NCBI GenBank assembly: GCA_963702845.1
Contig: OY969763.1
Location: 2,208,001 to 2,272,000, forward strand
Reading direction: 5' to 3'
Source: an uncultured Verrucomicrobiae bacterium
GTDB lineage: Bacteria; Verrucomicrobiota; Verrucomicrobiia; Limisphaerales; Palsa-1400
DNA: 64,000 bases
A program made the translations under genes and the position numbers. This document shows, one piece after another, positions 13,354 through 45,909 of this stretch. Each line of letters begins with the position of its first letter. The first letter of the stretch is position 1. Under the pieces are notes generated by a model. It was given only the letters and a program-made list of their open reading frames with translations. It was not told where the DNA came from and did not search any database.

Positions 13354-13403
13354 AATGGAGCCAGCTGTCGGGATTGAACCGACGACCGACGGTTTACAAA
13401 ACC
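13354..13403. repeat. att core (left), duplicated 3' part of tRNA-Thr
   Basis: aatggagccagctgtcgggattgaaccgacgaccgacggtttacaaaacc is identical to 45833-45882. Confidence 0.95.
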
Positions 13404-13453
13404 AACTACCACAATCAGAAAAGCCTTATTTTACAGCCTTTTTCATTATATAG

Positions 13454-13483
13454 TTTACATTTGCCCAATTATTTGCCCATAAT
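13454..13483 (+). promoter_or_regulatory. Putative integrase promoter containing tandem ATTTGCCCA arm-type sites
   Basis: TTTACA(13454)-N18-CATAAT(13478), 6 nt before the ATG; the 21-mer ATTTGCCCAATTATTTGCCCA recurs at 45689-45709. Confidence 0.6.
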
Positions 13484-13489
13484 GCGCGC

Positions 13490-14824
13490 ATGAAACCACA
13501 TGCAGGCAAATCCAAAACCAAACGGGCCGGCAAAGAACGTTTTCACATCATCCACTTTACCAACCCGAGCGGCGAGAAAGTTTTTCGCCTCGCTGGTTAC
13601 AAATCGGACGGCTCCCGTGTTCGCGAGAACCACAAGACCCACGAAGAGGCCATCGCCCGCAAAGCCGAACTCGACATCGAAGCTGCCAACATCATCACCA
13701 CCACGGCCACGCGCTTGAAAGCCACGCGCCTGACCGACGAGCAAGTCAAAGACGCCGAGCGCGCCTATGCCAAAGCCGGCAAACATCCCCTGCTCTTCAT
13801 TGTCGAATACTTCAATGCCAACTACCGCGAGCCTTTCCGCCAAATCACCGTTTCTGACGCAGTCGAAAAGTTCGTCGCGGACCGCAAAAAACAGAACCGC
13901 CGCCCGGACACGCTGCGCAATCTAAAAGGACGCCTGGGAATGTTCGTTCGCTTCTACGGCAAAAAAAATGTAGCCGAGATTACCACCGAGGATTGCCGCG
14001 ATTTCGTTTTCCGCAATGGCACATCGCCCCGCAATCAGATCAACGACCGCCTTGCAGCCTCAAACTTTCTCAATTGGTGCGTGCAGCGCCAGTATACCAC
14101 CACCAACCTCATGGCCGGCGTGGACAAGCCCGGCGTGGACACCGAGGAGCCATCCGTCCTTTCCGTCGCCGATTGCCGCAGCCTCCTTTCCGCAGCACGC
14201 GACTACAAAGATGGCCACATGCTGCCGTATGTCACCCTATCCTTGTTCGCTGGACTGCGGCCAACCGAAATCGCCCGCGTGACATGGGACCGCATTGACC
14301 TCACCGAAGGCACCATCACCCTGGATGGAAGCATGGCCAAGACTCGCCAACGTCGCATTGTCAAACTGCCAGACAACGCGCTCGAATGGCTGGTGCCGAT
14401 CGCTCCGAAGCGCCAGAAACTCAAGCCCGCCTCATTCAAACGCCACTTCGGCAGGGTCCAAAAAGCCGCTGGATTCGGGAATCAGGAGCTCGAAGAAAAG
14501 AGACAGGCCAAGAAATACGCCAAAGCCGTTGCCAAGGCCAACAAAGCCGGAAGGCCAACGCCGCCAGAGCCCGTGAAAGCCAATGCGCTCCGCCCGTGGA
14601 TTCAAGACTACATGCGGCACACGGCCATCTCGATGTATCTGGCCAAGCACAAACACGAAGGCGAAGCGGCAAGCTGGGCCGGCAACTCGCCCAACGTCAT
14701 TCATTCTCATTACAAGGGCCTTGTCAAAGAAACCGACGCCACCGAGTTTTGGAGCATCACACCGGCCAACGTAAAAAGCGACGTGGCCAAACTACCGACC
14801 GCAACCAAAGCTGCCGCCGCCTAA
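13490..14824 (+). CDS. int: Tyrosine recombinase / phage integrase
   Basis: LSLFAGLRPTEIARVTWDRIDL (box I), AKTRQRR, MRHTAISM, AGNS...HY (box II); adjacent to the att site. Confidence 0.93.
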   Translation: MKPHAGKSKTKRAGKERFHIIHFTNPSGEKVFRLAGYKSDGSRVRENHKTHEEAIARKAELDIEAANIITTTATRLKATRLTDEQVKDAERAYAKAGKHPLLFIVEYFNANYREPFRQITVSDAVEKFVADRKKQNRRPDTLRNLKGRLGMFVRFYGKKNVAEITTEDCRDFVFRNGTSPRNQINDRLAASNFLNWCVQRQYTTTNLMAGVDKPGVDTEEPSVLSVADCRSLLSAARDYKDGHMLPYVTLSLFAGLRPTEIARVTWDRIDLTEGTITLDGSMAKTRQRRIVKLPDNALEWLVPIAPKRQKLKPASFKRHFGRVQKAAGFGNQELEEKRQAKKYAKAVAKANKAGRPTPPEPVKANALRPWIQDYMRHTAISMYLAKHKHEGEAASWAGNSPNVIHSHYKGLVKETDATEFWSITPANVKSDVAKLPTATKAAAA

Positions 14825-14888
14825 CACGCGGCGGTAGGCACGCGCCAGAACGCAACTAAGCAATAAAAACCGCCTCACCGGCAGCCAC

Positions 14889-17800
14889 ATGCAATCGAAT
14901 GATTGTCAAGGCGCATGCCTCGTGCAATCATCGCCTCTTAGCATACAAGCAGTGACAACCGATGCACAAAATCTTCCCATTGGCCAGCAGGTCTCCCTGC
15001 CCGGACATTTCGACGTGCTCGTCACGCTTGAAGCCGCTCGCCCACTGGCCAAGGGGTTCGAGTGCCGCGTCCGCATGCCTAATGGCACGCTTGAGGAAGC
15101 AGTAATCTCAGCCGAGGAAGCGGAGGCTTTATCGGGCACCGCACCAACAGCCAATGCAGCACCCGCATTGGGTGACGCTGACCAACTCCGCCTGCTCGTT
15201 GAATCGGCTCGCATCCGTCTCGCTTACGCTCACGACCGCCACTTCGCCGTCAGCCTGTCCGGCATACGCACATTGCCTCACCAGATCGAGGCGGTCTATC
15301 TGAAGATGCTACCCCAGCCCCGTTTGCGCTTCCTGCTTGCGGACGACCCTGGTGCCGGCAAGACCATCATGGCCGGTTTGCTAATTAAAGAGATGAAGCT
15401 CCGTGAAGCCATTGAGCGCATTTTGATTCTTTGCCCGTCCCCGCTGACCATCCAATGGCAGGACGAAATGCTCCGCTGGTTTGGCGAACCGTTCGACATG
15501 ATTTTTTCAGCGGTGGATCAACAGCAACTCACCAACCCTTGGCAGCGTTCGAACCAGGTCATTGCCTCCATTGACTACGCCAAGCAGGACGACGTCCGTG
15601 AGCGCGTCTGGCAACAGCGATGGGATTTGGTCATCATCGATGAGGCGCACAAATGCAGTGCCTACACAAAAAGCTCCTCCGGGCGTGGTGACGAAGTCTC
15701 CAAGACTAAGCGTTACCAACTGGCTGAACACCTCACGGCCCAACCCGCAGGCCACGTCCTCTTGCTTACAGCAACGCCTCATCATGGCGACGACGACCGC
15801 TTTGCCCATTTTATTCGACTATTAGACCCTGACCTGTTCCCCGAACCCCATCGCCTCGCAGCCAAGTCAGGCGAAATCCGCCGCGACATTCTTCGCTTGG
15901 GGCCCGATTGCCCTTGGGCTTTGCGCCGATTGAAAGAAGACCTTAAAGATATGCAAGGTCGCCGCCTCTTTCCCGACCGCCACGCCCATACACTCGCCTT
16001 TCGCCTTAATCGTGACGAATACGATCTCTACAAAGCGGTCACTGCCTACATCAATGAATTTCTTCCCCAAGCCAGCGGCAGCAAGAAACAAAGTGTTGCG
16101 CTCATTCGCACCGTCCTGCAACGCCGGCTCGCCAGTTCGACGCTGGCCATTTTTGAGTCCATCCGGCGACGTCTCGAAAAACAACAGACTCTTTTGACCG
16201 ACCTTGAAAATCTCCCGCCCGCGCAACGCGCCCGCCGCCTTGCCCAACTACAGGGCCGCCTGACCGATGCCGAGCAGGACGAGGACGACCTTGATGAAGC
16301 GGAGCGCGACCACCTGACCGACGAGTTCACCGTTGCGGTTGAACTTGATCAACTCCGGACCGAAATCGCCGCGCTACAGGAATTACTTTCCCGCGCCCGC
16401 CGTGTGCGCGACCAGGCCGGCGACTCCAAACTCGCCGCCCTTCAGGAGTGTCTCAAGCGCGCCGAGTTCAAGGAACTAACCGATGGGCGTGGCAAGCTCC
16501 TCATCTTTACCGAACACCGCGACACGCTTAGACACTTACGCCAACATCTGGAAACGTGGGGCTACACCGTCACCGAGATTCACGGCGGCATGAACCCGCA
16601 CGAGCGCAAACGGGCTCAGGAGGATTTTCGCACTTCACGTCAGATTTGTGTCGCGACCGAAGCAGCGGGCGAAGGCATCAATCTTCAATTTTGCCGCTTG
16701 ATGATCAACTATGACCTGCCTTGGAACCCAACGCGCTTAGAACAACGGCTTGGCCGCATTCACCGCATTGGGCAGGAACGCGACTGCCATGCCTTCAATT
16801 TCGTCGCGGCTCAATCCGAGGAAGGGCAGGACATCGTGGAGGGAAAAATTCTAACCCGGCTCCTCGAGAAGCTCGAACAAATGCGCGAGGTCTTGGCCGA
16901 CCGCGTCTTCGACGTGATCGGAGAAGTGCTTTCGCTCAACGACGTAAATTTGCCGGAAATGCTGCGCGAAGCTGCCCACGACCCCCGGCGCCTTGAGGAA
17001 TACCTCGACAAAATCGAGCAGGTTGACCCGGCGCGCCTCACCCAATACGAACAGGCCACCGGTATTGCGCTCGCCCGCGCCAACGTGGATTTCTCTGGCT
17101 TCCAGCGCGCCAACGTCGAATCCGAAGAACGCCGCCTGATGCCGCGTTATGTCGAGGAGCAGTTCGTCAAATCATGCGCTGAGCTTGGTCTCAAAATCGA
17201 ACTTCGTGCCGATGGACTTTGGCGGATTGAACACGTCCTGGCCGACTTGCGCTCCGACCGGCTTGAAGCCGTTCGCCGGTTGGGTAAACCCGACGCCGCC
17301 TATCGCAAGCTCACATTCCACAAGGGCGACTTGGACGAGGATCAGCATCTGGACGCCGTCCTGTTTGGGCCTGGCCATCCGCTGTACGCCGCCCTCGATG
17401 AAAAGCTCAATGAGAAGCTGATGCCGCTCGTTGGCGGCATGGCCGTTTATGTGGACGCCAAAACTCAATCTCCCTACCGCGTGCATTTTTTTGAGTTCAG
17501 CATTCGCGGGCAAAACAGCAAAGGCGACACTCAGACACTTTACGCTGAGCTTCTCGCCATTCGCGAGGAACCCAGCGTGCCGCTCGCCGAACGCTTCGCG
17601 ATTGTCCCTGCTGACTGTCTGATCGACTTGGCCGCTCACCCCGCGCCGCCGGAAAGTTTCAGCCCGCTTGCCCCCGGTCCGGCCGCTGATTTCCTGAAAA
17701 GCAGCTATCAAAGCGAACGTCGCCAAGCCTGTCAGGATGAACGGAAGCACTTTGTCGAAGTCTGCCGCGACTACCTGCAGAAATCTTTCAACGCTCGTTT

Positions 17801-18485
17801 GCGCGCGGCTCAGGACCGAGTCATGACTCTTCGCGCCCGCGAAGCGGCTGCACCGGAAGTGGCCGTCGCGCGCCAGCGCGCCGAGAATGACTTGGCTGAC
17901 TTGCAACGCACCCAAAAAGAACGCATGGCAGGCTTGGACCGTCTGGCGATCGCTCGGCATGGCCCCGTCCGGCACATCGCCACCGCCCTCGTTGTCCCGA
18001 CCACCGATGGCCCGCACACAGCGCTTACCGACTTGCTTACCGAGTTGGACCCTGAACTGAATCGCCAATGCGAACTGGCGGCGGAAGATGTAGTTATAGC
18101 TTACGAAACCGCTCGAGGCTGGGATTGTACCCGCGTTGGCCACGAAAAAATCGGCTTCGACATCCGCAGCATGGGCCGGTCCGACCCGCAGACCGGCTAT
18201 CGTGACCCGGTCACTAGCATTCGTCGCATCGAGGTCAAAGGACGGAAACGTGGCGCGACTATCCGCCTTACCACAAACGAATGGTACAAAGCCGTCCAGC
18301 TTGGCGACTCTTATTGGCTTTACGTAGTTTGGGATCCGTTGGGCACACCGGACGCCGAGCCGCTCCGCATCCAAAACCCGGCCAAGTATCTAGACCACGC
18401 CAAGAAGGAAGTCGTGGCAGCCAGGTATTTTGACATTCCCGCCAACGCCATTGAGCAGGCGGCCATAAGGATAAAGGAGCTATGA
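14889..18485 (+). CDS. SNF2-family helicase with C-terminal DUF3883 (NO VEIN-like) nuclease domain
   Basis: LLADDPGAGKT, IIDEAH, LTATPH, TEAAGEGINLQ, EQRLGRIHRIGQ; C-terminal GFDIRS...IEVKGR...LTTNEW...YWLYVV; true start may be slightly downstream. Confidence 0.92.
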   Translation: MQSNDCQGACLVQSSPLSIQAVTTDAQNLPIGQQVSLPGHFDVLVTLEAARPLAKGFECRVRMPNGTLEEAVISAEEAEALSGTAPTANAAPALGDADQLRLLVESARIRLAYAHDRHFAVSLSGIRTLPHQIEAVYLKMLPQPRLRFLLADDPGAGKTIMAGLLIKEMKLREAIERILILCPSPLTIQWQDEMLRWFGEPFDMIFSAVDQQQLTNPWQRSNQVIASIDYAKQDDVRERVWQQRWDLVIIDEAHKCSAYTKSSSGRGDEVSKTKRYQLAEHLTAQPAGHVLLLTATPHHGDDDRFAHFIRLLDPDLFPEPHRLAAKSGEIRRDILRLGPDCPWALRRLKEDLKDMQGRRLFPDRHAHTLAFRLNRDEYDLYKAVTAYINEFLPQASGSKKQSVALIRTVLQRRLASSTLAIFESIRRRLEKQQTLLTDLENLPPAQRARRLAQLQGRLTDAEQDEDDLDEAERDHLTDEFTVAVELDQLRTEIAALQELLSRARRVRDQAGDSKLAALQECLKRAEFKELTDGRGKLLIFTEHRDTLRHLRQHLETWGYTVTEIHGGMNPHERKRAQEDFRTSRQICVATEAAGEGINLQFCRLMINYDLPWNPTRLEQRLGRIHRIGQERDCHAFNFVAAQSEEGQDIVEGKILTRLLEKLEQMREVLADRVFDVIGEVLSLNDVNLPEMLREAAHDPRRLEEYLDKIEQVDPARLTQYEQATGIALARANVDFSGFQRANVESEERRLMPRYVEEQFVKSCAELGLKIELRADGLWRIEHVLADLRSDRLEAVRRLGKPDAAYRKLTFHKGDLDEDQHLDAVLFGPGHPLYAALDEKLNEKLMPLVGGMAVYVDAKTQSPYRVHFFEFSIRGQNSKGDTQTLYAELLAIREEPSVPLAERFAIVPADCLIDLAAHPAPPESFSPLAPGPAADFLKSSYQSERRQACQDERKHFVEVCRDYLQKSFNARLRAAQDRVMTLRAREAAAPEVAVARQRAENDLADLQRTQKERMAGLDRLAIARHGPVRHIATALVVPTTDGPHTALTDLLTELDPELNRQCELAAEDVVIAYETARGWDCTRVGHEKIGFDIRSMGRSDPQTGYRDPVTSIRRIEVKGRKRGATIRLTTNEWYKAVQLGDSYWLYVVWDPLGTPDAEPLRIQNPAKYLDHAKKEVVAARYFDIPANAIEQAAIRIKEL

Positions 18486-19423
18486 ATCTGCCAATCCGAG
18501 CTGACACCCACATCACCGAAAGCGAATCTCGAAAGGTGCTCGCAGCCAAAGCGCCCAAGACTTGGCTGATTCGCGAATTGAACGAACGTGATTATGGAGT
18601 TGATGCCTACATTGAAATTTGTTTGAAGATGGACGAAGTCAATGTGGTCACCGGCGACTTCTTCCTTGCTCAACTTAAAGGCACAGAAACAGCCATCAAA
18701 TGGTTGAACGATACGCCGCCGAGACCCCGCTATTTCACTTTTTCTGGAACCAAGCAGGAAACCGTGAATTACTGGATGCGGCTTGGGGTACCTGTGTTCC
18801 TATTAGTGGTTGAATGCAATACTAACCGGGTATTTTTTGCCAATATCAAAGACCAGGTGCGCTCGCGATATAGCGAATTTTTAGGGCAAGGCAGTTTCGG
18901 CTTCCAGATGATTGAAGCTGCCGAACTCGGAACTTCGAACGGAGATAGGGTCCTGCATTGTGAATATGATCTGGAGAAAAATTTCGCGGAGTTTCAATCA
19001 AAGGCAGTCACCCTACTGTGTAGTTGGCAGAAATACCTCGATTTCATCGAAGCAAAGTCGGGTCTCGACTACCACATGGAAGTTGAGCCGGAAGACGAGC
19101 TTCATTTTATCCATATCTACCGAACGTGTAATTTTCTAGCCGCTTGGCTGGGTATTGAGTGGAATATCCGTCCGGTGAATCAACTTTATATCGACGAGGC
19201 CGCAAATTTTGGCGACATCTACGCGCTGCATAATCATACATTAAACGAGGTGTTGCCGCAGATTAACAAAAAGGTGATCGAAATTCTCCGGGAACTGTTG
19301 AAACTGGTGATGGTCACTGAGCGAGACTATTGGGAAGAACAAAATCCAGTCGTTTCACGGTTATGCTCGAATTTTTGGCATAACCAACATAACTACCCAA
19401 ACATTTTTCCTGACCCTAAATGA
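18482..19423 (+). CDS. DUF4365 domain protein (PD-(D/E)XK nuclease-like)
   Basis: ERDYGVDAYIEI...FLAQLKGT...VNYWMRLGVPVFLLVV; overlaps both neighbours. Confidence 0.78.
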   Translation: MNLPIRADTHITESESRKVLAAKAPKTWLIRELNERDYGVDAYIEICLKMDEVNVVTGDFFLAQLKGTETAIKWLNDTPPRPRYFTFSGTKQETVNYWMRLGVPVFLLVVECNTNRVFFANIKDQVRSRYSEFLGQGSFGFQMIEAAELGTSNGDRVLHCEYDLEKNFAEFQSKAVTLLCSWQKYLDFIEAKSGLDYHMEVEPEDELHFIHIYRTCNFLAAWLGIEWNIRPVNQLYIDEAANFGDIYALHNHTLNEVLPQINKKVIEILRELLKLVMVTERDYWEEQNPVVSRLCSNFWHNQHNYPNIFPDPK

Positions 19424-22407
19424 TCGACGACAAACGCCTCATTGAAGATTACCTGCCGATTGTCGCCATTAGCGCCGAGGCGTCGCGGGAAAAATCCGTC
19501 CGCAAGGGTCACATTTCTACGCTGCATTTGTGGTGGGCGCGGCGTCCGCTCGTCGCCTGCCGCGCCGCTGTCTATGGTGCGCTCGTTCCCGCCTCGCAAT
19601 TCGTACCGAACGGCGGGTCAGACGCGCAAAAGAAATCGCTTGGCCGCGCCAATGCCGCCAAGTTCATCACTGCACTTTGTAAATACCCCGGCTCACCGCA
19701 GGTCATCAAAGAGGCACAGGCGCACATATTGAAGGCACATGCGGAACGGCTTTCTGCGGAACAGGGAAAGAGCGTCAGCGTCGAGGAAATTCTCGCCGGG
19801 CGCGCGCCGCGTCCGCGGGTACTGGATATGTTTGCCGGCGGCGGCGCAATTCCGTTGGAGGCTTTGCGACTTGGTTGCGAAGCCTACGCCAACGACCTTA
19901 ATCCCGTCGCCCACATCATCCAGCTTTGCACGCTCGTCTATCCGCAGAAATTCGGCAAACCCGATCCGACCGCTCGCGGCATGACCGGGCCGAAAGACGA
20001 AAACGGCAAAACGACTTGGGGCGGACTCGCCGAAGAAGTTCGGTATTGGGGGAATTGGGTGCTGGAAAAAGTTCGCGCCGAGATTGGCGATTTGTATCCA
20101 CTCATTCCTGATCCCGATTTTACGCCGCCGAACAAAAGCAAAGGCGGCGATGCCGACAATGCCTTTGCCGAACCGCAGCACGTCATGGGCTTTGCCGATG
20201 ACCCGCAACAGAAGCTCAAAGCGACACGCGGCTTTCTGACGCCGGTGGCCTACCTGTGGACGCGTACGGTGCAATGCAAAAATCCGAATTGCGGCGCGAC
20301 CGTGCCTCTGGTGAAACAAACCTGGCTGTGCAAAAAAAATGGACGCTGCGTCGCGCTCAAAATGGTTGCTCCTAAAGGCGAGAAACGCGTGCGCTTTGAA
20401 GTCGTTGAAGCATCAACAGAACAGGGTTTGGGATTCGACCCGACTGCATTTTCGAAAGCGGGCAACGCAACTTGTCTTTTTTGTGGTGCGGTCGCGGACA
20501 GTGACTATGTGATGGTGCAAGGTTGCTCTTCCGGGTTGAGAGAACAGGCTATGGCGGTTGTCTGTAGCCGACCGGGCAAAACTGGTAAGGTCTATTTGAG
20601 TATTGAGAATGCACAGGAGGCCGTCAGTCCTGACGAAATTTCTTCACGACTTAGGAACTTTTGCGATGAAAATGGGGTCGAAGTTCCCAACGAACCGATC
20701 AGCCCACTGCGCCCTTCGCCAAATGCGCGAGGGTTATCTGGGTTGACCCGCTACGGAGTCAACAATTTCGGAAAACTTTTCAACGCCCGACAACATTTGC
20801 TTCTCCTTTCCCTTTCTTCAGCGGCAAAGAGCGTCGCCTCGGATAGCGAACGATCTGTCGCACTTGGGGCGTACTTAGCTCTCCTCGTTGGAAGGGTTGC
20901 GAATCAGAATTGCGCCTTCACAGTTTACAATACAATTGGGGAAAAGATTGAAGGACCGATGGGTGATAAGAAAGTACCTATGGTATGGGATTACCCGGAA
21001 ACAAATCCTTTTTCTGGTCTAACTGGTGGCGGTGACAACGCGCTCAAATGGATTTTTGAGGTGGTAAAATCTTTGAGCGAAATTACCACCGCCGGAACTG
21101 TCGCAAGGGGAGACGCGACAAAACTTTTATTCGACGACAATATTTTCGACACGATCATAACCGATCCGCCTTATTACGATAATGTTCCTTATGCCGACAT
21201 TTCAGATTTTTTTTACGTCTGGTTCAAAAGATGTGTTGGCCATCTCTTTCCTGAGCATTTTTCGTCGCTACTGACACCCAAAAAAGCAGAAGCCACGGCT
21301 TTGGCGTCGCAACATGGAGGCGACATGTCGAAAGCGACAGGTTCTTACGAGGACAAAATGCTTCTTTCGCTGAAGGAAGCCAACAGGGTTCTCAAATTTG
21401 GCGGTGAACTCGTCGTGGTTTATGCCCACAAGACAACACTGGGTTGGGCCACGCTTGTTGATGCCTTGCGAAAAGCAAACTTTGAAGTTTCTGAAGCTTG
21501 GCCACTCCAGACCGAAATGCCCGCAGGAAAAGTCAAACTTGACAAAGCGATGCTTGCTTCAAGCATTTTTCTTATTGCACGCAAGCGCGGCGGAGAATCC
21601 GTCGGACACGAAGATCAAGTTCGCCCCGAATTGGAATCCATTGTTCGCGAGCGCGTAGAGACGCTTTGGGATATGGGTATTTCCGGTGCGGATTTGGTGA
21701 TTGCCAGTGTCGGAGCGGGCTTGCGCGCGTTCACCCGTTTCGCTCGCGTGGAATATTCTAACGGAGAGGAAGTCCCTGCCGAGCGGTTTCTCACCGAGGT
21801 TGAGACCGTCGTGCTGGAAACCATTCTCGCGCGACTTTCCAAAGAAGTCGGCAGCAAAGGTACCAGCTTGGCCGGCCTTGACTCAGCGACACGTTTTTAC
21901 ATTCTCTGGCGTTACACCTACAAATTCGCTCCACTCGACGCTGGCGAAGCCATCATCTTTGCCAACGGTACCCACGTCGAACTCGACGGCCAAGGCAGCC
22001 TGTCCGCTGGCAGCCATGCCCTCGTTTCCAAAACCAAAGCCAAATACAGCCTCCTTGATTACACTGGGCGCGGCAGTGATGACACAATCGGCCTTCCCAA
22101 AGAGAACGGCGATGCCGCACCGCTCGTTGACGTTTTGCACCGCATGCTCTGGCTCATGGAGAAACGCCCCGCCGAACTTCCCAAGTTTTTGCGCGAAGCG
22201 CAGGTGAACCGCGAACAGTTGCGCCTTGTCGCCCAAGCCCTCGCCGGGCCCGCATTAAAAGGCGGCGAAATGGATGACGTCTCACCCGCTGCCGAACTTT
22301 CCGCCCTCGGCAAACTGATGGCCAACTGGCAAAGTGTCGTGGAAGACGCCGCACAGACGCCGGGCGAGAAGGAAGAACGCAAGAAAGGCCAGAAACAATT
22401 GATCTGA
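19420..22407 (+). CDS. DUF1156 adenine-specific DNA methyltransferase
   Basis: REKSVRKGHISTLHLWWARRPL, LDMFAGGGAIPLEA, Cys-pair zinc ribbon, TDPPYYDNVPYAD. Confidence 0.92.
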   Translation: MIDDKRLIEDYLPIVAISAEASREKSVRKGHISTLHLWWARRPLVACRAAVYGALVPASQFVPNGGSDAQKKSLGRANAAKFITALCKYPGSPQVIKEAQAHILKAHAERLSAEQGKSVSVEEILAGRAPRPRVLDMFAGGGAIPLEALRLGCEAYANDLNPVAHIIQLCTLVYPQKFGKPDPTARGMTGPKDENGKTTWGGLAEEVRYWGNWVLEKVRAEIGDLYPLIPDPDFTPPNKSKGGDADNAFAEPQHVMGFADDPQQKLKATRGFLTPVAYLWTRTVQCKNPNCGATVPLVKQTWLCKKNGRCVALKMVAPKGEKRVRFEVVEASTEQGLGFDPTAFSKAGNATCLFCGAVADSDYVMVQGCSSGLREQAMAVVCSRPGKTGKVYLSIENAQEAVSPDEISSRLRNFCDENGVEVPNEPISPLRPSPNARGLSGLTRYGVNNFGKLFNARQHLLLLSLSSAAKSVASDSERSVALGAYLALLVGRVANQNCAFTVYNTIGEKIEGPMGDKKVPMVWDYPETNPFSGLTGGGDNALKWIFEVVKSLSEITTAGTVARGDATKLLFDDNIFDTIITDPPYYDNVPYADISDFFYVWFKRCVGHLFPEHFSSLLTPKKAEATALASQHGGDMSKATGSYEDKMLLSLKEANRVLKFGGELVVVYAHKTTLGWATLVDALRKANFEVSEAWPLQTEMPAGKVKLDKAMLASSIFLIARKRGGESVGHEDQVRPELESIVRERVETLWDMGISGADLVIASVGAGLRAFTRFARVEYSNGEEVPAERFLTEVETVVLETILARLSKEVGSKGTSLAGLDSATRFYILWRYTYKFAPLDAGEAIIFANGTHVELDGQGSLSAGSHALVSKTKAKYSLLDYTGRGSDDTIGLPKENGDAAPLVDVLHRMLWLMEKRPAELPKFLREAQVNREQLRLVAQALAGPALKGGEMDDVSPAAELSALGKLMANWQSVVEDAAQTPGEKEERKKGQKQLI

Positions 22408-22408
22408 T

Positions 22409-23475: not shown

Positions 23476-23490
23476 CAGCCAACCAAAACC

Positions 23491-35508: not shown

Positions 35509-35535
35509 CTGAACCGATAATCCCGCCGGAACAAA

Positions 35536-38697: not shown

Positions 38698-38748
38698 TTC
38701 CCGCTCGGCTCGCGTCCGTCCAGGGCGCGAGCCATTCGCCAACCTCGT

Positions 38749-39009
38749 ATGAAAAATCCTTTGTTCGACAATACGCCTCGCTGGCGTCAGTGCATTTTGC
38801 AGCTGACACGCACCGTCACGATCGAGACCCGTCGCCGCCTCATGTGCATCCCGCACCGCCAAGACGCCAAAGAAGAAGCCAACCACCTCCGCCGTCAATA
38901 CGGCGACGCGCTCGTCGCAGTGAACATTTCCAAAAACGGCAAAGGCCCGACAGCCACATACACGTGCTCCTACACACTGCGCGAAACCCGCACCGAGGAA
39001 TTATTCTGA
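38749..39009 (+). CDS. Hypothetical protein
   Basis: 86-aa ORF, co-oriented, preceded by a GC-rich hairpin. Confidence 0.55.
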   Translation: MKNPLFDNTPRWRQCILQLTRTVTIETRRRLMCIPHRQDAKEEANHLRRQYGDALVAVNISKNGKGPTATYTCSYTLRETRTEELF

Positions 39010-39076
39010 TCTACCTTGTCGCGCCATAGCCTTCGGCGACGGCGGAACGCCAGAGATTTGCCACCGCTGCACTCCG

Positions 39077-39110
39077 CCTTTAACGACGCAATCTCAGCGC
39101 ATGGTTAGGC
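39077..39110 (-). other. Collapsed attC site
   Basis: Minus strand GCCTAAC-CATGC-GCTGAGATTGCGTC-GTTAAAG just after the stop codon of 39118..39576. Confidence 0.55.
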
Positions 39111-39117
39111 GGCACGG

Positions 39118-39576
39118 TCATGTCTGTCGCTGATAACCTAAAGCTCTCAAAAAGTCGTCTGAACCCCGGAGCAAAAGCGACAGCCGGTGAGTTTGCCCCT
39201 GCTGATCGCGGTAATCCAACAACAGCGAACGTCCTGAATCGCTCGGCTGAACACTAATGATGGAAGCTCTCGGAATGCGATGCTCCATGTCAGATAGCGA
39301 TCCGATGACGTTAAACGGAAACCCGCTGCGAACCCAAACCTCATCGTCGGTGACAGTGACCTGCAAACAGCCAGCCGGTCCACCAAGCCGAGTGAATGTC
39401 GTTTTATGCGAGCTCCCCGACGCGCGCACCTCGTGAAAGCGAATGCGGTCTGATGAAACTTGCGGGAAAACTATGCCGTGTCGCTTGTGGTGCCGCCAAC
39501 GCATCGCAAAGATCCAGAGAACCAGCAGCATCGCACCCAGATTTAACCAGATGATGTATTTTTGAAAATGGTCCAT
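39118..39576 (-). CDS. Hypothetical membrane-anchored protein in an integron-type cassette
   Basis: N-terminal TM helix; preceded by GTTAGGC (39602-39596) and followed by the complementary GCCTAAC (39110-39104). Confidence 0.7.
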   Translation of the reverse strand: MDHFQKYIIWLNLGAMLLVLWIFAMRWRHHKRHGIVFPQVSSDRIRFHEVRASGSSHKTTFTRLGGPAGCLQVTVTDDEVWVRSGFPFNVIGSLSDMEHRIPRASIISVQPSDSGRSLLLDYRDQQGQTHRLSLLLRGSDDFLRALGYQRQT

Positions 39577-39603
39577 CGCCTAAGCGCCTAATATCGCCTA
39601 ACA

Positions 39604-39623
39604 AACAATTAATACGCGACAAC
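39604..39623 (-). other. attI-like recombination site, copy 2
   Basis: Minus strand GTTGTCGCGTATTAATTGTT followed by TGTTAGGC; 35 bp after the terL stop. Confidence 0.6.
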
Positions 39624-39657
39624 CACTAGATTCCGCAATTGATCCTTCATCCTTTCT

Positions 39658-41040
39658 TCAAAGCCCCCTCAACTTCCGATGCACGATAACGCGCGGCTTA
39701 GTCGCAATCAGATAACGCAACGCATCCGCCGCATCGTCGCCGCCGACGCCATCTTCGTCTGCGTCGACCTTCAGCACGTCCTCAGGCCGGTTCGGATCAT
39801 GTTGCAGCGCCGGCAACGTCTCAACTAACCGCCCGCACTTTTTGTGAATGAAAAGCGTCGGACGGATACCGGCTTCGGCGTCACCGAAGCGTGTCAGAAT
39901 TTCCGCCCACCCATTGATGCGATCCGTGTTCGCGCAGCGCAAAGTAATCCCGTGCTTCGCATACTGCGCGGCAATCGTTGTGCCGTCGCTCTGGCGCGAA
40001 AACACATCCGCACCAGCCACGCACCGTTTCAAACTGCTTGGTTGCAGGCCATGCCTGCCGAGCATCGCCTTGATTGCCGCCGCGTGACGTTGCGGCAACC
40101 ACATCCGCTCCGCGTGTTCATCCACGACGAACACGTTCCCGTCACAATCCGTGCAGCCGAGCAACACTACCGTGTAATGCGCGAAGCCATAGTCCAGCGC
40201 ACAAAACCATTCACGCGCCCGCTTGTCGTCGAAGTCCTCGATGACATGCACTTCCCTCCGCAGCGTCGTGAAGAACTGCCCCGCCGCGATGTCCCAATCC
40301 CCATCCAGCCACGCGCGACGCTGCCAACCGCTCAACCCCTGCAGTACCCGGATATATTCCGGGTTGTTCCAACGGTTGTCAGTCACACGCGCCGCCACAA
40401 ACCTCGTCTCCGTCTCGGCCTTGTTCAAAAAAGGCAGGACGAACCTCGACCGATACCACCCGTGACCGACGCCGCCCGGATTCGTCGTCGAATAGATACG
40501 TGGTCGCCAATTCGGTTTGCTTGTCCGACAACACGTCGTGATGTCCTGGTATTTCCGCGCCGTCAACGTCGTCGCCTCCTCGATGCCTATGACGTCGTAT
40601 TCGAGGCCGAGATACGCGTCGATGTCCTTCTCGTTCTGAAAATGCCCGGCAATGATCCGCGAGCCGTTATTGAATGTGAGGATGCCCCGAAACGCCGAGA
40701 ACTCGTGACCGAGCTTCGTGAATAGCTTTCGCCGCAGATCCTCGAAGTGCTCAAGGTTCGCCTTGCCGACCTTGCGCAGCAGTAAACATTTCAATCCTGG
40801 CACACGCTGACAATCATCGACGCCCATCTGGCCAAGCAACCAATGTGACTTGCCACCGCCGCGCGCGCCGCCGTAGCCGATTGCTGTCGGCCCGTCGGTA
40901 GTGTCGCAGAGCCTCGCCGCCGCGCTGGCCGCAAGCTGACGCTCCTGCAATACCACGTCCGCGCGCTCAAACCGTTGCATCTGGTCCTTCGGACAACCAG
41001 CGCGCCGCCCGATCAGAAAATACCTTTCCCAAGGCGTCAT
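39658..41040 (-). CDS. terL: Terminase large subunit
   Basis: YGGARGGGKS Walker A, IGIEEAT Walker B, TTNPGGVGHGW, ALDYGF and DDAADALRY nuclease motifs. Confidence 0.93.
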   Translation of the reverse strand: MTPWERYFLIGRRAGCPKDQMQRFERADVVLQERQLAASAAARLCDTTDGPTAIGYGGARGGGKSHWLLGQMGVDDCQRVPGLKCLLLRKVGKANLEHFEDLRRKLFTKLGHEFSAFRGILTFNNGSRIIAGHFQNEKDIDAYLGLEYDVIGIEEATTLTARKYQDITTCCRTSKPNWRPRIYSTTNPGGVGHGWYRSRFVLPFLNKAETETRFVAARVTDNRWNNPEYIRVLQGLSGWQRRAWLDGDWDIAAGQFFTTLRREVHVIEDFDDKRAREWFCALDYGFAHYTVVLLGCTDCDGNVFVVDEHAERMWLPQRHAAAIKAMLGRHGLQPSSLKRCVAGADVFSRQSDGTTIAAQYAKHGITLRCANTDRINGWAEILTRFGDAEAGIRPTLFIHKKCGRLVETLPALQHDPNRPEDVLKVDADEDGVGGDDAADALRYLIATKPRVIVHRKLRGL

Positions 41041-41615
41041 TGCGTTTTCTCCGGTAGCACGGGCGTTGCTTCGATATCCACCACCTCGCCGGGCAACGGC
41101 TCGCCATAAATCTTCTCCAGCGCGACCGTGACCTCGACGCGCACCATTGGCAAATCGTCACCGTTATCGCGCTCGCCGTTCGTGCCAAGCCCTGTCGCCA
41201 GCCGCCCGAGCTTGCTCGCGATCTCCAGCATTCGCGCGATGTCCGAGAGATTCGCATAAACCTTTTCGCGCGCCATGTAGGCATCGAGACCCCGTTGCGC
41301 CGCAGCAATCGCACGCTCATGCATTGCCCATTCCGTCTCGCGCAACTTCTGCTCGCGCCCCTCCCACTCCGCCGCCTTGCTTCGCGCCGTCGCCTCGATC
41401 GCCTCGCGCTCCACAATCGCCAGATGCGCCGAGTGCGCCTGCACTCGCGCCGACCAATCAAACCGCCGCGACCACTTTTCCATTTGCCCCTTACTCTTGC
41501 CTAACTTTTGCCCTACCAATTCCAGCGACCGCTCTGGGCCCATTCCGAGATACAATCCAAACGCCGCAAACGCTTTAGCTGACTCTTTCGGCTGTTGCTC
41601 AAAAATTAACGCCAT
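41037..41615 (-). CDS. Terminase small subunit (putative)
   Basis: ESAKAFAAF..Y..MGPERSL HTH...WSRRFDW.AR; coupled to terL. Confidence 0.75.
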   Translation of the reverse strand: MALIFEQQPKESAKAFAAFGLYLGMGPERSLELVGQKLGKSKGQMEKWSRRFDWSARVQAHSAHLAIVEREAIEATARSKAAEWEGREQKLRETEWAMHERAIAAAQRGLDAYMAREKVYANLSDIARMLEIASKLGRLATGLGTNGERDNGDDLPMVRVEVTVALEKIYGEPLPGEVVDIEATPVLPEKTQ

Positions 41616-41657: not shown

Positions 41658-41813
41658 ACGGACGCTACGGACGCATCTCCGCCATACCTTTTTATAAAAT
41701 TTTGTTTTCTCCCCACGCGCGTGCGGAGGTGGAAATGATCCGTCCGAACCGTCCGAGATTCCGTCCCCTTTGAAATCTCAAACGACTTGTATCCATGCGT
41801 CCGAACCGTCCGA
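41658..41813. promoter_or_regulatory. Putative replication origin (CGTCCG iterons around an AT-rich core)
   Basis: ACGGACGC x2 (41658-41674), AT tract 41689-41708, CGTCCGAACCGTCCGA at 41741 and 41798; directly downstream of the helicase gene. Confidence 0.6.
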
Positions 41814-41829: not shown

Positions 41830-43380
41830 TTATGTGCATCGGATTCCTTTCCAGCCGCGTTGCGGCTTTTCGGCGTCGTCGGGGATGTCATGCCTGACCG
41901 TTAACCCATGCAGCCTGGTCATCGTGTCACCAATCACATTTGAGAACTTCTTTTTCGCCATCACCGTCCAACTCCGCTCATTACAGAAGCCAACATATTT
42001 CTCGTAACACTGCGCCACCGTCAGCGACGCCTCCGCGTCTTTGCAGACACACTCAGTGACAAAGACCACATCCGCTTCGGATTCCATCAGAAGATCGTCG
42101 ACCGTCGTTTGTTGTCGGGATGTCAGCCGAAGCTGCCATTCGTCGGCTCGAATCTTTTCCAACCCTGCCAGCATCCAATTCAGCACCCCCGAACCTTCAT
42201 CGGCGAGGATTCGCTCGCTCAAATCCGCAATGACATTCGTCGTTTTCGGTTTCCGATATTCAATGATTGCCAACCGTCGGCGCCACGCGTCCGCGTCGCC
42301 CTCCAGTCGCACCGTTAGCCGCGAATTGCAGGTTGCAATCGCATTGAACCGGCAAGTGATTTCCGGCCGTTCATTACTGCCCTTAAATTCCAGGGTGACC
42401 GGATCACCACCCGTCAACGCCTTCAGAACCGATGCGCCTTTGCAGTTGAGAAAATTGTCCGGCACATCCGCACCGTAGAGGAGCGATTTTCCGAGCAACC
42501 GTCCCAACTCAAAACGTTCCGCCAACAAATCCGGTCGCACCGTCCCCACGTTCCTGGCTCCAATGATCCCGACAATCACACGGATCAGCGTCCCCTTCCC
42601 TCCGCCGGCCGTGCCGGTAAGAATGACGAACCGCTGCGCTAGGTTGACGCCAATCAGGGCCAGACCACACCAACGTTGCAGTAGTTCGATGTCTTCAGGT
42701 TCAAGCGCAGGCTCTAATAGCGTTTTCAGAAACAAAGGGCACTCAGCACCCGCACGAAATTCTACCCCAAGCTTATTCCGTCGCCGGTATTGCGGGCCGA
42801 AGTCGAGCAGCGTTCTGTCAGAAACGCGGAGCACGCCGTTTTTACACGGAACAAACTCCATCAAATCGGTTTGGAAAAAATCGGGACCGACCTCCAGCAA
42901 ACCGCGCGCTCGCGTCATAACCCCTTTCAGATTCGCCGAGTCCCGAAACTTAAATTCCAAATTCCGCACATCAAACTTCGGGGCGCAGTCGCGCGCACAA
43001 TTCAGCAGCAGCTCGCTCAACCTCGCTGTAAGCAGCGGTTCGCGTGTCTCGCAATAAATCCCCTCCTCCGGCGTATAGGTATAGAAGCGGTCCTCTGCCG
43101 CCGCAAAAACAGTCGGCCATTCTTTAGAACCGTCCTCACCCAGAGACGCCGCCAGAAAATCTTCCGACAAATCTTTGACGAACGGCTTTTCGCCCTCTTT
43201 GACCGGCACGACCTCTTGCGCCGCCGAACCATATTTGTTTTCCAAAGCCGGATATTTCGCCGCGAACCACGCCGCCGGAGTGTCCGGCGTTGCAGTGCCC
43301 GAGGGAATAGCGCCAGCGGGCGCGGCCTCAACTCCATTCGATTTCGCCCACTCCTGTAATTTCTCCAACGGCTCATTCAT
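41830..43380 (-). CDS. P4/D5-family SF3 DNA helicase
   Basis: VPCKNGVL (D5_N), LTGTAGGGKGT, LKALTGGD, AWRRRLAII. Confidence 0.88.
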   Translation of the reverse strand: MNEPLEKLQEWAKSNGVEAAPAGAIPSGTATPDTPAAWFAAKYPALENKYGSAAQEVVPVKEGEKPFVKDLSEDFLAASLGEDGSKEWPTVFAAAEDRFYTYTPEEGIYCETREPLLTARLSELLLNCARDCAPKFDVRNLEFKFRDSANLKGVMTRARGLLEVGPDFFQTDLMEFVPCKNGVLRVSDRTLLDFGPQYRRRNKLGVEFRAGAECPLFLKTLLEPALEPEDIELLQRWCGLALIGVNLAQRFVILTGTAGGGKGTLIRVIVGIIGARNVGTVRPDLLAERFELGRLLGKSLLYGADVPDNFLNCKGASVLKALTGGDPVTLEFKGSNERPEITCRFNAIATCNSRLTVRLEGDADAWRRRLAIIEYRKPKTTNVIADLSERILADEGSGVLNWMLAGLEKIRADEWQLRLTSRQQTTVDDLLMESEADVVFVTECVCKDAEASLTVAQCYEKYVGFCNERSWTVMAKKKFSNVIGDTMTRLHGLTVRHDIPDDAEKPQRGWKGIRCT

Positions 43381-44427
43381 GCCGCCACCTCCGGTGAGTA
43401 AAGCGCCACTCGCGCCCCTTGTTTCTCAATCGGAACGCCAGTCGGTTTCGGGTTGAGATACATCAGCCGTTGCAACCGCTCGCCTCGCATCGCCTGCGGC
43501 AACCGTGTCAAACGAACCGCCGACAACGCGCCCGGATCAGCCCCAAGCGTCACCAGCACCGGCTTCATTTTTCTGACAATCGAATCCCAGTCGCTTTTCG
43601 TCGCCGCATCAATCCGCACCAGCGCGTGAATCGATCGACCGCCCGAACTGCAAATGCAGGAAATCGGCAGCGGCATTTGCACCAGGCAACGCAACCACTC
43701 ATCCGGATTCGCTTCGTCACTTTCCAAAACGACGTATCGCCATGCCGTCACGGATTCTTCTGACCGCCGCGACATCTTCCCGCCGAGGCGGGGATTCTGA
43801 TGAAACACGCCGTCCACCGGTTGCGGCAGGAACCAAACGCCATCCGGGCCAGTCGGTAAATCTCGATTCTGAATCTCGTCATTGCGCTCCGTTTCCCAAA
43901 CAAACTGCCCTTGCGACTTCATGTCCGAAAAAATCAGGAGGCGTTCGCCCACATTTTTTTTGTAGAGCCACCGCAAGACACTCGCGCTGTCCTGCCTGTC
44001 AACTTGCACCGGCGACAGTCGCCCCGATTGCCGCAACAACGTCCCGGATCGTCACTTTTTCCGCGACCCGTTTCAAAACCTTCGGACAAAACGCCGGTTT
44101 GCGAACCGGTTGAACAGCAATCGCTCGTGCAGACGGAGTCGGCGCGCTTTCTGGATTTCCATCTCCCGAGAGATGACCCCGCGCAAACGCATGTTGTGCA
44201 TTTGCTGCCGACGTGATTTTGTGGATCAAATCGGATTCCGACCATGGCGGCACGCAACCTCGATTCCACTCCCGCAACAACACCAGCGCATCCGGTTCTG
44301 ATAGCGCAAAACCCCACGCTAAAATCGACGCGACATGAAACGTCGCATCATGCCCGTGCTGACCGCTGACCGCGACCGGACACTTTGCGATATACCGCCG
44401 CGCCCGTTCAAAGATAGGCAAGCTCAT
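43377..44427 (-). CDS. DNA primase (PriCT-1-like domain plus AEP-like domain), split by a frameshift near 44020
   Basis: ORF 43999..44427 (AVSGQHGHDATF...WN..CVPPWSESDL..KI) overlaps ORF 43377..44039 (VLESD, SSGGRSIHALVR, VRLTRLP). Confidence 0.72.
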
Positions 44428-44504: not shown

Positions 44505-44747
44505 TTAGTTCGCCACTGGAGCGGATTGAGCCAACGTCCGACCGCGAACGAGCCGCGTGCCGGCAAGCGCCGCCCGGACCATATCGACATCAAAGAACAC
44601 TAGATGCCCGATTCGGATATGGGGAATCGCCTTCGCTTTGGTTTGAGAGCGCAGCCAGCGAATACTCGGTTTGCACTCGGGGGTGAACACTTCAGCAAGC
44701 ATTTGCTCTGCGTTCACCAGTTTTCCATTTACAGCTTTTTCGTTCAT
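44505..44747 (-). CDS. Excisionase/AlpA-like winged-helix protein
   Basis: 80-aa basic ORF PSIRWLR...IPHIRIGHLVFFD; divergent from the repressor. Confidence 0.7.
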   Translation of the reverse strand: MNEKAVNGKLVNAEQMLAEVFTPECKPSIRWLRSQTKAKAIPHIRIGHLVFFDVDMVRAALAGTRLVRGRTLAQSAPVAN

Positions 44748-44913
44748 TTCTAATACTCCGCAGTCAACGCTCCGCCTCCGCCCGGCTTGCCTTGCTCCGC
44801 TCCTGCGAATGCCGCTCACCGAATCTCTGCGCTGCGTCGCGTTGCCGGATATGTATGACAGATATGTATAAAAGGAGTAGATATTTAATGCGTATATGCT
44901 ATGCATCAGCTGA

Positions 44914-45648
44914 ATGAGAATATCGCCGCAGCGCCACACCCTAGCCGTCCTCCGCTCAATTATCGGCATTACGCAGAAGGAAATGGCGCAAGTTGCAGAA
45001 TGCTCTCCGCCTACCATTCAAGCCATCGAGCTGGGTAAGTTGAAGCTCAGCGAAAAGCTGGGCGGATTGATCGCGCTACGCACTGGCGTCGCGTTGAAGT
45101 GGCTTTTAGATGACAACGTTGCATCAGCTCCCGTTACCGACGAGGGTCATCCATTCACCAAAGACGTCTACCACCAGACCCAGGCATTTATTAACGCGCC
45201 ATCGCCGCCGCAATTCTCTTTGTTCCAGCCGATGGTTTCGTTTCAGTCCAACGTGTTTCGTTTGGCCAGCATCCTCTTAAAAGCACACAAGGATAAGAAG
45301 GTCACCCTTTGCGCATACAAAATTGCTAAAGCCATGGACGAACTGGATCGCGAGTTCGGCATAACCGACGACGACAGAGCCTTCTTCGCAACTAAAATGC
45401 TTGCCCCCAATCCCAACAAGCCGACGGGGTCACCCGGCGACACGCTGTTTACCACTTTCAACAAAACCATCCAATCGCTCAGCCCGAAATATAAGTCACC
45501 GGCATACGACGAACCTCTCCGTTTCACCATCACGCCGGACGGACAAGTCACTCAGTCGACCGCTCCGGACATTCAAGCCTTGGCGAAATCAGCGAAGAAT
45601 CGTCACGCAAAAAAAGCTGCGAAGAAGAAAAGCCCGCGTAATCAGTAG
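44914..45648 (+). CDS. XRE-family transcriptional repressor
   Basis: LRSIIGITQKEMAQVAECSPPTIQAIELGK HTH. Confidence 0.82.
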   Translation: MRISPQRHTLAVLRSIIGITQKEMAQVAECSPPTIQAIELGKLKLSEKLGGLIALRTGVALKWLLDDNVASAPVTDEGHPFTKDVYHQTQAFINAPSPPQFSLFQPMVSFQSNVFRLASILLKAHKDKKVTLCAYKIAKAMDELDREFGITDDDRAFFATKMLAPNPNKPTGSPGDTLFTTFNKTIQSLSPKYKSPAYDEPLRFTITPDGQVTQSTAPDIQALAKSAKNRHAKKAAKKKSPRNQ

Positions 45649-45688
45649 ATGAGTAATCGTTGGAAAGAGCTGCGAAACAGGCCTAAAA

Positions 45689-45709
45689 ATTTGCCCAATT
45701 ATTTGCCCA
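45689..45709. repeat. Tandem ATTTGCCCA arm-type site (right end)
   Basis: ATTTGCCCAATTATTTGCCCA, identical to 13459-13479. Confidence 0.75.
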
Positions 45710-45834
45710 AAATCGTTCACTTTTCGGCAAATACTTTCCCTTTCTCGCATTTTGCTTCACCGACCGACAAAAACCAAAACAGCAAGCAAACCCTTTATTT
45801 GCAGTGGTTTTAACGATTTCCACGTAGAAAAGAA

Positions 45835-45909
45835 TGGAGCCAGCTGTCGGGATTGAACCGACGACCGACGGTTTACAAAACCGTTGCTCTACCACTGAGC
45901 TAAGCTGGC
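45835..45909 (-). tRNA. tRNA-Thr(UGU), 75 nt with encoded CCA; integration target
   Basis: GCCAGCTTAGCTCAGTGGTAGAGCAACGGTTTTGTAAACCGTCGGTCGTCGGTTCAATCCCGACAGCTGGCTCCA folds as a cloverleaf with anticodon TGT. Confidence 0.97.

Follow-up and report, generated by a model that had tools for sequence, protein, structure and literature searches.

The closest described systems are the phage-inducible chromosomal islands of the capsid-forming kind (cf-PICIs), in which tail-less heads that borrow tails are an established route, as far as the available text of the two sources goes (bioRxiv 10.1101/2025.02.11.637232, PMC10085698). The described tail-borrowing heads of this kind belong to small HK97-type islands of Proteobacteria and Firmicutes. 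Here we describe E1, the island at 13354-45882 of a window of 64,000 nt (the whole stretch of DNA that was analysed: contig OY969763.1, positions 2,208,001-2,272,000, assembly GCA_963702845.1); all E1 coordinates are window positions. In our preferred reading, to which we assign a probability of about one half, E1 is a capsid-forming, tail-less temperate element that derives from SPP1-headed siphoviruses and for which a helper supplies neck, tail and lysis.

E1 works like a cf-PICI in having its own tail-less head. Going by the accessible sections of the sources, it shares with EcCIEDL933 and KpCIDSM30104 the form of a chromosomal island, an integrase, a regulator, a primase-helicase, its own capsid, portal, TerS and TerL, an adaptor, the lack of a tail and defence cargo after the packaging operon. 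However, it departs from them in size, in operon type and in the stopper. Described cf-PICIs are much smaller, as an earlier note on this DNA had stated; they measure about 10-18 kb, against 32.5 kb for E1 and 29-55 kb for its family, and a cf-PICI head of 15.5-kb size (a small T=4 capsid) could not hold the E1 genome. Moreover, the cf-PICI combination of HK97 capsid, protease and HNH is replaced by an SPP1 gp13 capsid with scaffold and DUF4055 portal, and adaptor plus connector (stopper) by the adaptor alone. The E1 family also differs in its decoration or surface proteins, an often present membrane-protein/lipoprotein pair and hosts from Verrucomicrobiota. Two further groups lack tails like E1 and rely on helpers, but are only 11-16 kb long and keep adaptor and closure/stopper, according to the available parts of the respective papers: cf-PISP of Vibrio (PMC13230959), unlike E1 a plasmid, whose capsid is of the cf-PICI type, and EPIPs of Mycolicibacterium (PMC12822802), which encode a tape measure. 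In terms of the head itself, the nearest relatives are uncultured tailed siphoviruses (IMG/VR loci L089, L173, L174 and kin; phrog_247, phrog_145) with 52-64% capsid identity, which share the order of the head operon, the decoration slot and the adaptor. These tailed sisters keep MuF, stopper, Ne1, terminator, tube, chaperone and tape measure, whereas the E1 family has no tail. Among isolates, Enterococcus phage phiFL3A (49% capsid identity) and SPP1 (42%) are nearest, and the E1 capsid matched PDB entries 4an5/6r3a at 6e-103. The head genes of E1 are the following.

41037-41615, minus strand: terminase small subunit TerS (phrog_6299, 2e-19)
39658-41040, minus strand: terminase large subunit TerL (phrog_2, 3e-25; at most 89% to other members)
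32616-34262, minus strand: DUF4055 portal (phrog_145, 1e-101; PF13264)
29971-30744, minus strand: scaffolding protein (phrog_206, 2e-35)
28895-29902, minus strand: major capsid protein, SPP1 gp13 type (phrog_247, 1e-94)
28266-28889, minus strand: 207-aa two-domain virion surface or decoration protein (homologues 3' of the capsid gene in tailed relatives)
28060-28269, minus strand: 69-aa protein rich in Pro and Ala, conserved behind the capsid gene (74 distinct homologues among the loci collected)
27324-28115, minus strand: LamG-domain surface protein of 263 aa, the family's variable slot (phrog_10356, virion structural, 4e-11; PF13385 weak)
27010-27327, minus strand: 105-aa protein, found only behind LamG genes (no family match)
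26423-27010, minus strand: head-tail adaptor Ad1, with which the head operon ends (phrog_477, 2e-27; polar adaptor loop at about residues 142-159)

The operon runs from TerS and TerL through cargo, portal, further cargo, scaffold and capsid to the 207-aa, 69-aa, LamG and 105-aa genes and the adaptor, and is broken up by about 7 kb of cargo and non-coding DNA. Its end at 26423, convergent with the defence operon, had been claimed before and was borne out, the stop of HmaC at 26334 being 89 bp away. The single decoration gene of the earlier note, on the other hand, became four genes between capsid and adaptor (207, 69, 263 and 105 aa). Among the 38 E1 proteins scanned, no tail or lysis PHROG was matched at E ≤ 0.01, and no protease or HNH match was found; the claimed absence of tail genes thus stands. 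E1 also has neither a stopper (Hc1) gene nor a MuF/gp7 gene. An autonomous siphovirus prophage was rejected as a candidate, E1 being without stopper, terminator, tail tube and tape measure genes.

The small genes behind the capsid were examined as a conceivable short tail, which would make E1 a podovirus that had gone unrecognised. The 207-aa protein (model pLDDT 80 at best and 55-67 in other models) gave some reason for this: its first domain (residues 14-124) resembles the accessory domain of tail sheaths (Z 11.2) and the insertion domain of podovirus nozzles (Z 8.5-9.4), and its second domain is predicted to be Ig-like. However, the resemblance spans about 90-130 residues of chains of 464-806 aa, and the same gene is a short module that also lies 3' of the capsid gene in the tailed siphovirus sisters. 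Furthermore, the 207-aa and 105-aa genes are missing from most family members, no E1 ORF is large enough for nozzle or ejection (internal virion) proteins, and PF11134 was not found in the genome. A hidden short tail in E1 is therefore very improbable, and the small ORFs are probably not podovirus tail components. Foldseek with the Ad1 and 207-aa models gave no match at E ≤ 0.001. In the case of the LamG protein, a basic anchor of the W-x-x-W-x-Q-RRR type was read by eye at the N-terminus. The 105-aa gene shows a dN/dS of 0.11 against the copy in E2, and its product, possibly a fibre chaperone, did not match the stopper Hc1 profile (hhalign probability 0.1). In the ESM Atlas, only unnamed clusters were found for this protein and for the family lipoprotein.

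Loci for a comparison beyond E1 came from capsid searches: from genomes the best 80 of 101, from viruses 51, and in a later round 80 viral and 80 metagenomic ones. A locus counted as tail-less if 3 kb or more, or a lipoprotein or integrase gene, came after the adaptor and Ne1, terminator, tube and chaperone were all missing. At a capsid identity to E1 of at least 63.5%, 85 loci were tail-less (five from this genome and a few contigs fetched twice included), one was tailed and 88 were too short to judge. The sole tailed locus, L090 at 63.6%, falls outside the clade in every tree, so that none of the clade's 85 informative loci has a tail. Between 50 and 63% identity, nine loci were tailed and eight too short; the tail-less L159 (61%), fetched on the other strand, stands outside that count. 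Tails thus first appear at or below 64% identity. The conservation of tail absence, and the lack of a tail operon in close relatives on which the earlier note had made its proposal depend, are both seen in these 85 loci. Four further members with repeats at tRNA ends measure 36.0, 38.6, 39.4 and 51.2 kb; in 110 upstream proteins (of 132 unlabelled) of such members no tail family was detected, and the same scan detected control tape-measure, terminator and stopper genes. In 30 loci from the 47 adaptor-carrying genomes, which are the best-scoring matches and lean to members without stopper, no tail gene lay in the 0.5-1.5 kb after the adaptor.

The adaptor profile matched 47 of 401 genomes of the order, with up to eight copies each. 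Most record titles name Verrucomicrobiota and a few name other taxa, which places the lineage in the phylum that had been suspected as host. In a phylum-wide sample of 401 genomes (few of this order) no other capsid exceeded 36% identity, and a viral scan with a single Ad1 sequence gave no match. An E1-type element occurs in 7 of 61 relatives, and the E1 capsid is 92% identical to one from another genus but 80-83% within its own genus; this patchy pattern fits horizontal spread. Members use many att sites and integrase types. A domesticated gene transfer agent is ruled out by integrase, att sites, replication genes, variable sites, patchy spread and lack of a tail; IME1 and Charybdis elements are unrelated and without HK97 head. 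No description of the family was found in open-access literature text (supplements and SatelliteFinder tables not included), so that it is apparently undescribed, and widespread in Verrucomicrobia. As separate observations, L281 (14000-18300) joins the right end of an element to a left end via a partial tRNA core with arm-like repeats, ambiguously an excised circle or a tandem, and L019 and L030 hold two elements end to end in opposite orientation at one site. No terminal repeats were seen in eight whole IMG/VR contigs.

This distribution bears on whether E1 is simply a decayed prophage with a recently deleted tail. Signs of decay exist: the primase (near 44,020) and the RhuM gene are frameshifted in E1, and L010, L026 and L264 are truncated members. 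On the contrary, tails are absent across a clade of 64-98% capsid identity with saturating synonymous divergence. Every head gene, adaptor included, is under purifying selection, with dN/dS of 0.05-0.18 against E2 and 0.05-0.16 against the copy from another genus, far below 1. Selection on the adaptor in turn indicates that an adaptor at the portal vertex is still needed. The primase and RhuM genes are each broken at a short homopolymer run, and split genes are frequent in this assembly (50 candidates versus 639 full-length paralogous genes); an assembly error would be a likely cause of both. A programmed primase frameshift was rejected, as the break positions differ between relatives. For E1 decay is thus unlikely, and for the family as a whole it is largely refuted.

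To place the origin of the family, trees of capsid plus adaptor were calculated. With IQ-TREE, the tail-less rows came out as a single clade nested in tailed siphoviruses (38 of 84 rows, SH-aLRT 98), and a second IQ-TREE run united 21 tail-less rows (support 99/97). This agrees with the independent lineage of the earlier note, which had a head other than HK97/cos and a large defence cargo. The separation from the tailed L089 is seen only in IQ-TREE on capsid plus adaptor: FastTree did not separate L089 from the clade (support 0.13 for capsid alone, 0.31 concatenated), and in a tree of Ad1 only, L089 and L174 fall among tail-less rows. L159 stands outside the clade, unresolved with the tailed L089 and L174, and perhaps represents a second tail loss. 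Other genes changed along with the tail. MuF (SPP1 gp7) is a pilot of DNA ejection, and its gene lies between portal and scaffold in 6 of 8 tailed-sister loci (50-63% identity) versus 0 of 108 clade loci. A role of the elements in MuF toxin delivery (PMC3482391, as far as its available text describes this) was rejected, the clade being without MuF. In 12 of 80 tail-less loci, mostly early branches, a stopper follows 3' of the adaptor; there it is extended at its C-terminus, with an Mtd_N fibre behind it. Specifically, a repeated DWG-type extension was noted in L004, L006, L007, L011, L014, L028, L039, L241, L249 and L298, in which mostly an Mtd_N fibre and sometimes a collar-domain gene comes next. 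Fibres are possibly anchored at the neck in these early-branching members.

The structure of the adaptor was analysed at the residue level. In the AF2 model of Ad1 (pLDDT 88), a hairpin (residues 141-160) separates the last two helices, and the 12 best fold matches of the model are all neck or adaptor chains (Z 5.1-7.4), including neck adaptors of the YqbG, Mu, HK97 gp6 and RcGTA type (Z 6.7-7.4, rmsd 4-8). The Ad1 sequence itself found no match in the PDB. In phage R4C, the stopper, which retains DNA in the head, is bound by an adaptor loop in the same position, according to the available portion of that paper (PMC10276861). Judged by topology of the model, the Ad1 hairpin would be the same element. 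The loop was scored as hydrophobic when at least 25% of its residues, counted from the alignment, were large and hydrophobic. All 15 tailed rows and all 12 tail-less rows with a stopper have a hydrophobic loop, and in new loci five tail-less members with stopper scored 0.27-0.58, those without 0-0.25.

Several observations weigh against a tail supplied by a helper. No stopper is present in 68 of 80 tail-less loci, nor in any of the five copies in this genome. Only 2 of 69 stopper-less rows have a hydrophobic loop; the other 67 carry either a polar 11-mer or an insert, at most 30 residues long, that is rich in S/T/G. Stoppers hold DNA in the head and link it to the tail (PMC10276861, in the part available), and in cf-PICIs adaptor plus connector set tail specificity and are needed (bioRxiv 10.1101/2025.02.11.637232, PMC10085698, likewise in part). 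No candidate helper was found, and resident tails are scarce: a tube of the tailed-sister type occurs in 3 of 39 host genomes, a tape-measure match over cut-off in 5 of 47 carrier genomes, and in this genome PF10145, PF04984, PF13550, PF04865, PF11134 and PF18906 gave no match while controls were positive. The four IMG/VR members checked are classed as provirus, with CheckV values of 31-62%, and the E1 primase is broken where a relative has a single 352-aa ORF. Read most simply, the loop sequences suggest that members without a stopper have given up binding one of the ancestral type. With the stopper absent and the loop without stopper-binding character, docking as in an ordinary cf-PICI is doubtful for E1. 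However, kin share loop states, so the pattern represents a few events and not many independent ones.

These points give some room to a tail-independent particle, an alternative that we consider possible but clearly tentative. Here the head, with the remodelled adaptor as its sole closure, would be what is transmitted, the element's own surface proteins would bind cells, and DNA would enter by a host route (competence, pilus uptake or vesicles), with the membrane pair serving release or entry. The joint loss of tail, MuF, stopper and loop hydrophobicity would fit, as would the scarcity of resident tails; the tail-less L159 outside the clade suggests repeated loss in the same order. A further point comes from a second head type. 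The same chassis was found with an unrelated HK97/Mu-type portal, protease, capsid and adaptor in 25 loci, five of which reach the same end state of adaptor, membrane pair, xis and integrase; ten also keep a DUF4055 portal, and four look tailed by our own reading of the sequence, made without a family check. If this alternative held, HK97-fold viruses packaged through a portal would spread with no tail, at least two unrelated head types might have repeatedly shed tail, pilot and stopper in one order, and 30-55 kb of defence-laden DNA might move via host uptake, which would be categorically new. Nevertheless, no precedent was found in the literature searched, and the variable surface slot also occurs in tailed sisters, which deprives it of value for self-adsorption. 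The host has comEC, but so do 10 of 14 control genomes, which leaves it little weight. The membrane pair is missing from E1 and 18 of 80 loci, and loop change and stopper loss are phylogenetically linked, probably in a few events. We favour tail borrowing, given the precedent of cf-PICIs and the early branches, which with stopper and hydrophobic loop look ready for it, as a tail-borrowing stage would need.

The membrane pair also modifies the claim that lysis genes are lacking. This is true of the E1 copy, but 58 of 80 tail-less loci carry a small membrane-protein and/or lipoprotein gene 3' of the adaptor, as do three elements co-resident with E1, as a pair. The family lipoprotein shows a lipobox and three hydrophobic segments, read by eye, and has homologues among fibre and internal-virion genes of 72-kb phage contigs; a holin/spanin-like role of the pair may be proposed from sequence. 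A tailed prophage of these hosts has four small late genes, again without a lysis family match. The 72-kb contigs (L164-L168), with collagen-like fibres and an internal-virion match, share the lipoprotein and a fibre family with tail-less elements and are candidate phages of the same hosts. As to the second head type, two portal genes (DUF4055, then HK97/Mu-type portal, protease, capsid and adaptor) were seen in L362, L363, L366-L369, L372-L374 and L384, and five of these elements end in the same membrane pair.

The genome carrying E1 holds the head module five times, all att-bounded and tail-less. Apart from E1, one copy measures 29.0 kb at tRNA-Met, its adaptor ending about 150 bp from the att site, one 46.9 kb at tRNA-Asp, one 55.4 kb at a tmRNA-type end (site named from our own reading of the sequence) and one 48.6 kb at tRNA-Thr(cgt), or 58.5 kb to an outer repeat. 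A size of about 32 kb, taken earlier as a trait of the lineage, is therefore not fixed and varies from 29 to 55 kb in this genome alone. Of about 190 unlabelled proteins of these four copies, 126 were scanned together with four small E1 ORFs, a set that leaves aside most proteins shorter than about 95 aa and five that span a locus border; no tail family was found among those scanned, and one cargo protein gave a weak Rz-like match. Using 330 late proteins of distant viral relatives as queries, we found no tail gene in the genome (89.8% complete). Neither phrog_179, whose positive control was also silent, nor the Hc1 stopper (alignment A7, no positive control genome) was matched genome-wide. 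For comparison, 47 of the order's 401 genomes have the adaptor and 24 the PF10145 tape measure.

One may ask whether the heads are the main vehicle at all, or whether the island rides in particles of other phages or as free DNA while its head genes serve interference or host benefit. The large defence cargo speaks for this, and lone terminase pairs and partial head modules in the genome, together with two portal genes in 10 of 25 HK97-type loci, hint at uses other than virions. However, a complete, ordered head operon with decoration genes is kept under selection, and sizes of 29-55 kb fit one SPP1-size head (SPP1, 44 kb), so we consider this improbable. As regards the scattered genes themselves, lone terminase genes or pairs of two types lie on G000:C1 at about 2,814,000, 6,002,500, 2,924,000 and 5,404,400, and further terminase or head sites at 2,183,000, 2,302,700, 2,595,000, 2,758,800, 3,497,700, 4,753,900, 5,247,800 and 5,838,400. 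Among them are, at 2.30 Mb, TerS, TerL and portal as a trio and, at 5.24 Mb, a head set of HK97 type in scrambled order; no tail gene was found in the genome. A 7.3-kb island at tRNA-Arg(cct) adjoins E2 (G000:C1, 4,847,332-4,854,628), with integrase and split primase-helicase but no head genes, and a 27.9-kb repeat-bounded island lies at tRNA-Arg(tcg).

Taking tail borrowing as the preferred reading, the life style may be pictured as follows. The element integrates at tRNA or tmRNA ends, as att repeats and an empty site show, and its genes imply excision and replication on induction. It would assemble its own head, probably T=7, and fill it with its own terminase, probably by headful packaging in view of the SPP1-type capsid and the lack of protease and HNH. 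Tail and MuF pilot went in the ancestor; most descendants, E1 among them, have dispensed with the stopper as well and have a remodelled adaptor loop. The filled head would then be finished and released via a co-infecting tailed phage, usually not resident, that supplies neck, tail and, for E1, lysis, and docks otherwise than in cf-PICIs. The room left by the tail genes would hold defence systems and cassettes, a benefit to the host for keeping the island. The lineage represents an independent, phage-sized origin of tail-less heads from a different head lineage, in a phylum with barely known phages. About one in nine sampled genomes of the order carries the family, with up to eight copies per genome, and in these bacteria it is a major carrier of gene cassettes and defence systems. 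Virus pipelines will score such elements as incomplete proviruses. The lineage keeps its intermediates (tailed sisters, stopper-keeping early branches and a stopper-less crown, with a matching loop change), and these make both the path from phage to satellite and the question of whether a portal virus needs a tail testable. New here are the five copies side by side, the order-wide counts, the MuF loss, the link of loop and stopper and the second head type.

The boundaries and the control and replication genes of E1 are listed next.

13354-13403, no strand: att core, partial 3' copy of tRNA-Thr(tgt) (100% 50-nt direct repeat and tRNA call)
13459-13483, no strand: putative arm-type integrase-binding repeat (25 nt, 96% to 45689-45713)
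13490-14824, plus strand: tyrosine integrase, 444 aa (PF00589, phrog_1)
41741-41812, minus strand: two identical 15-nt repeats (starts 41741 and 41798), candidate origin iterons from their position
41830-43380, minus strand: P4/D5-type helicase (TIGR01613 over cut-off; PF19263, PF08706)
43377-44427, minus strand: primase, frameshift-split near 44,020 (phrog_2597)
44505-44747, minus strand: excisionase-like HTH protein (phrog_1840, 1.5e-4)
44914-45648, plus strand: divergent repressor (phrog_2328, 3e-9)
45689-45713, no strand: arm-type repeat, pairs with 13459-13483
45833-45909, minus strand: att core inside intact tRNA-Thr(tgt) (direct repeat, tRNA call)

The intact 50-bp att repeats noted earlier were recovered as an exact direct repeat at 13354-13403 and 45833-45882 (spacing 32,479), corresponding to the 3' part of tRNA-Thr(tgt), the full tRNA being at 45835-45909 on the minus strand. 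In a genome of the same genus, an upstream oxidoreductase, this tRNA and a greA-like gene lie inside about 1.5 kb, and this identifies the 32,479 bp as an insertion; there, tRNA and greA-like gene are about 1.1 kb apart, and the site contains about 1.1 kb of other DNA. The E1 integrase is 64% identical to that of the G003 element, which is located at a tRNA-Ser-like site and has a doubled repeat analogous to the E1 arm repeat adjoining its integrase. Family matches support integrase, repressor, excisionase, primase, helicase, TerS, TerL, portal, scaffold, capsid and adaptor as named beforehand; for the origin, the two 15-nt repeats fit the claim, with a function suggested by position only.

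Finally, the cargo of E1 was annotated.

14889-26334, plus strand: Hma-type defence cluster (PADLOC HmaA 1e-187, HmaB 2e-118, HmaC 2e-91), consisting of the next five genes
14889-18485, plus strand: HmaA SNF2 helicase (PADLOC 1e-187, Pfam)
18482-19423, plus strand: DUF4365 gene inside the cluster (Pfam)
19420-22407, plus strand: HmaB DUF1156 methylase (PADLOC 2e-118)
22409-23475, plus strand: RhuM/PDC-S05, frameshifted near 22,890 (Pfam/PADLOC)
23491-26334, plus strand: HmaC DUF499 ATPase (PADLOC 2e-91)
30967-32619, no strand: portal-scaffold cargo, at the MuF position of tailed sisters (PD-T7-5 and a 130-aa gene)
30967-32007, minus strand: PD-T7-5 (PADLOC 6e-104)
32227-32619, plus strand: 130-aa gene, with the portal gene's end duplicated (31 nt) at its flanks
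34263-39657, no strand: cassette-like cargo (Imm50, TIGR03067-like, small membrane genes) and a partly non-coding, family-conserved stretch (no Rfam family)

Defence takes up 35% of E1, or 38% with PD-T7-5, in line with the claim of more than a third. The cargo matches HmaA, HmaB, HmaC and PD-T7-5 of PADLOC; the resemblance to these systems concerns the cargo alone, and the Hma cluster contains extra DUF4365 and RhuM genes. By our own reading, E5 (L132-L133) and E2 (L145) have among their cargo a phosphorothioation cluster of the Dnd-like kind, with PAPS reductase and a cysteine desulfurase-like gene, and a defence pair containing QueC.

The conserved stretch within 34263-39657 holds two small ORFs on the opposite strand. 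Between TerL and portal, 36700-38900 is largely non-coding, and near 38300-38450 as many as 34 loci gave DNA matches. Some windows of 200 nt fold at z of -3 to -4, and no Rfam match was found. A strict attC scan of the cargo gave no site, and short palindromes lie 3' of some genes. Duplicated gene ends flank cargo, as in the 31-nt portal end at 32049-32079 and 32618-32648, and the TerL 3' end (39650-39800) has 18 copies across the genome; such sequences suggest that cassettes may be gained via recombination at gene ends. A short repeat at 34395-34470 has 38 genome matches and, together with 36468-36498 in inverted orientation, encloses the Imm50 and TIGR03067-like cargo.

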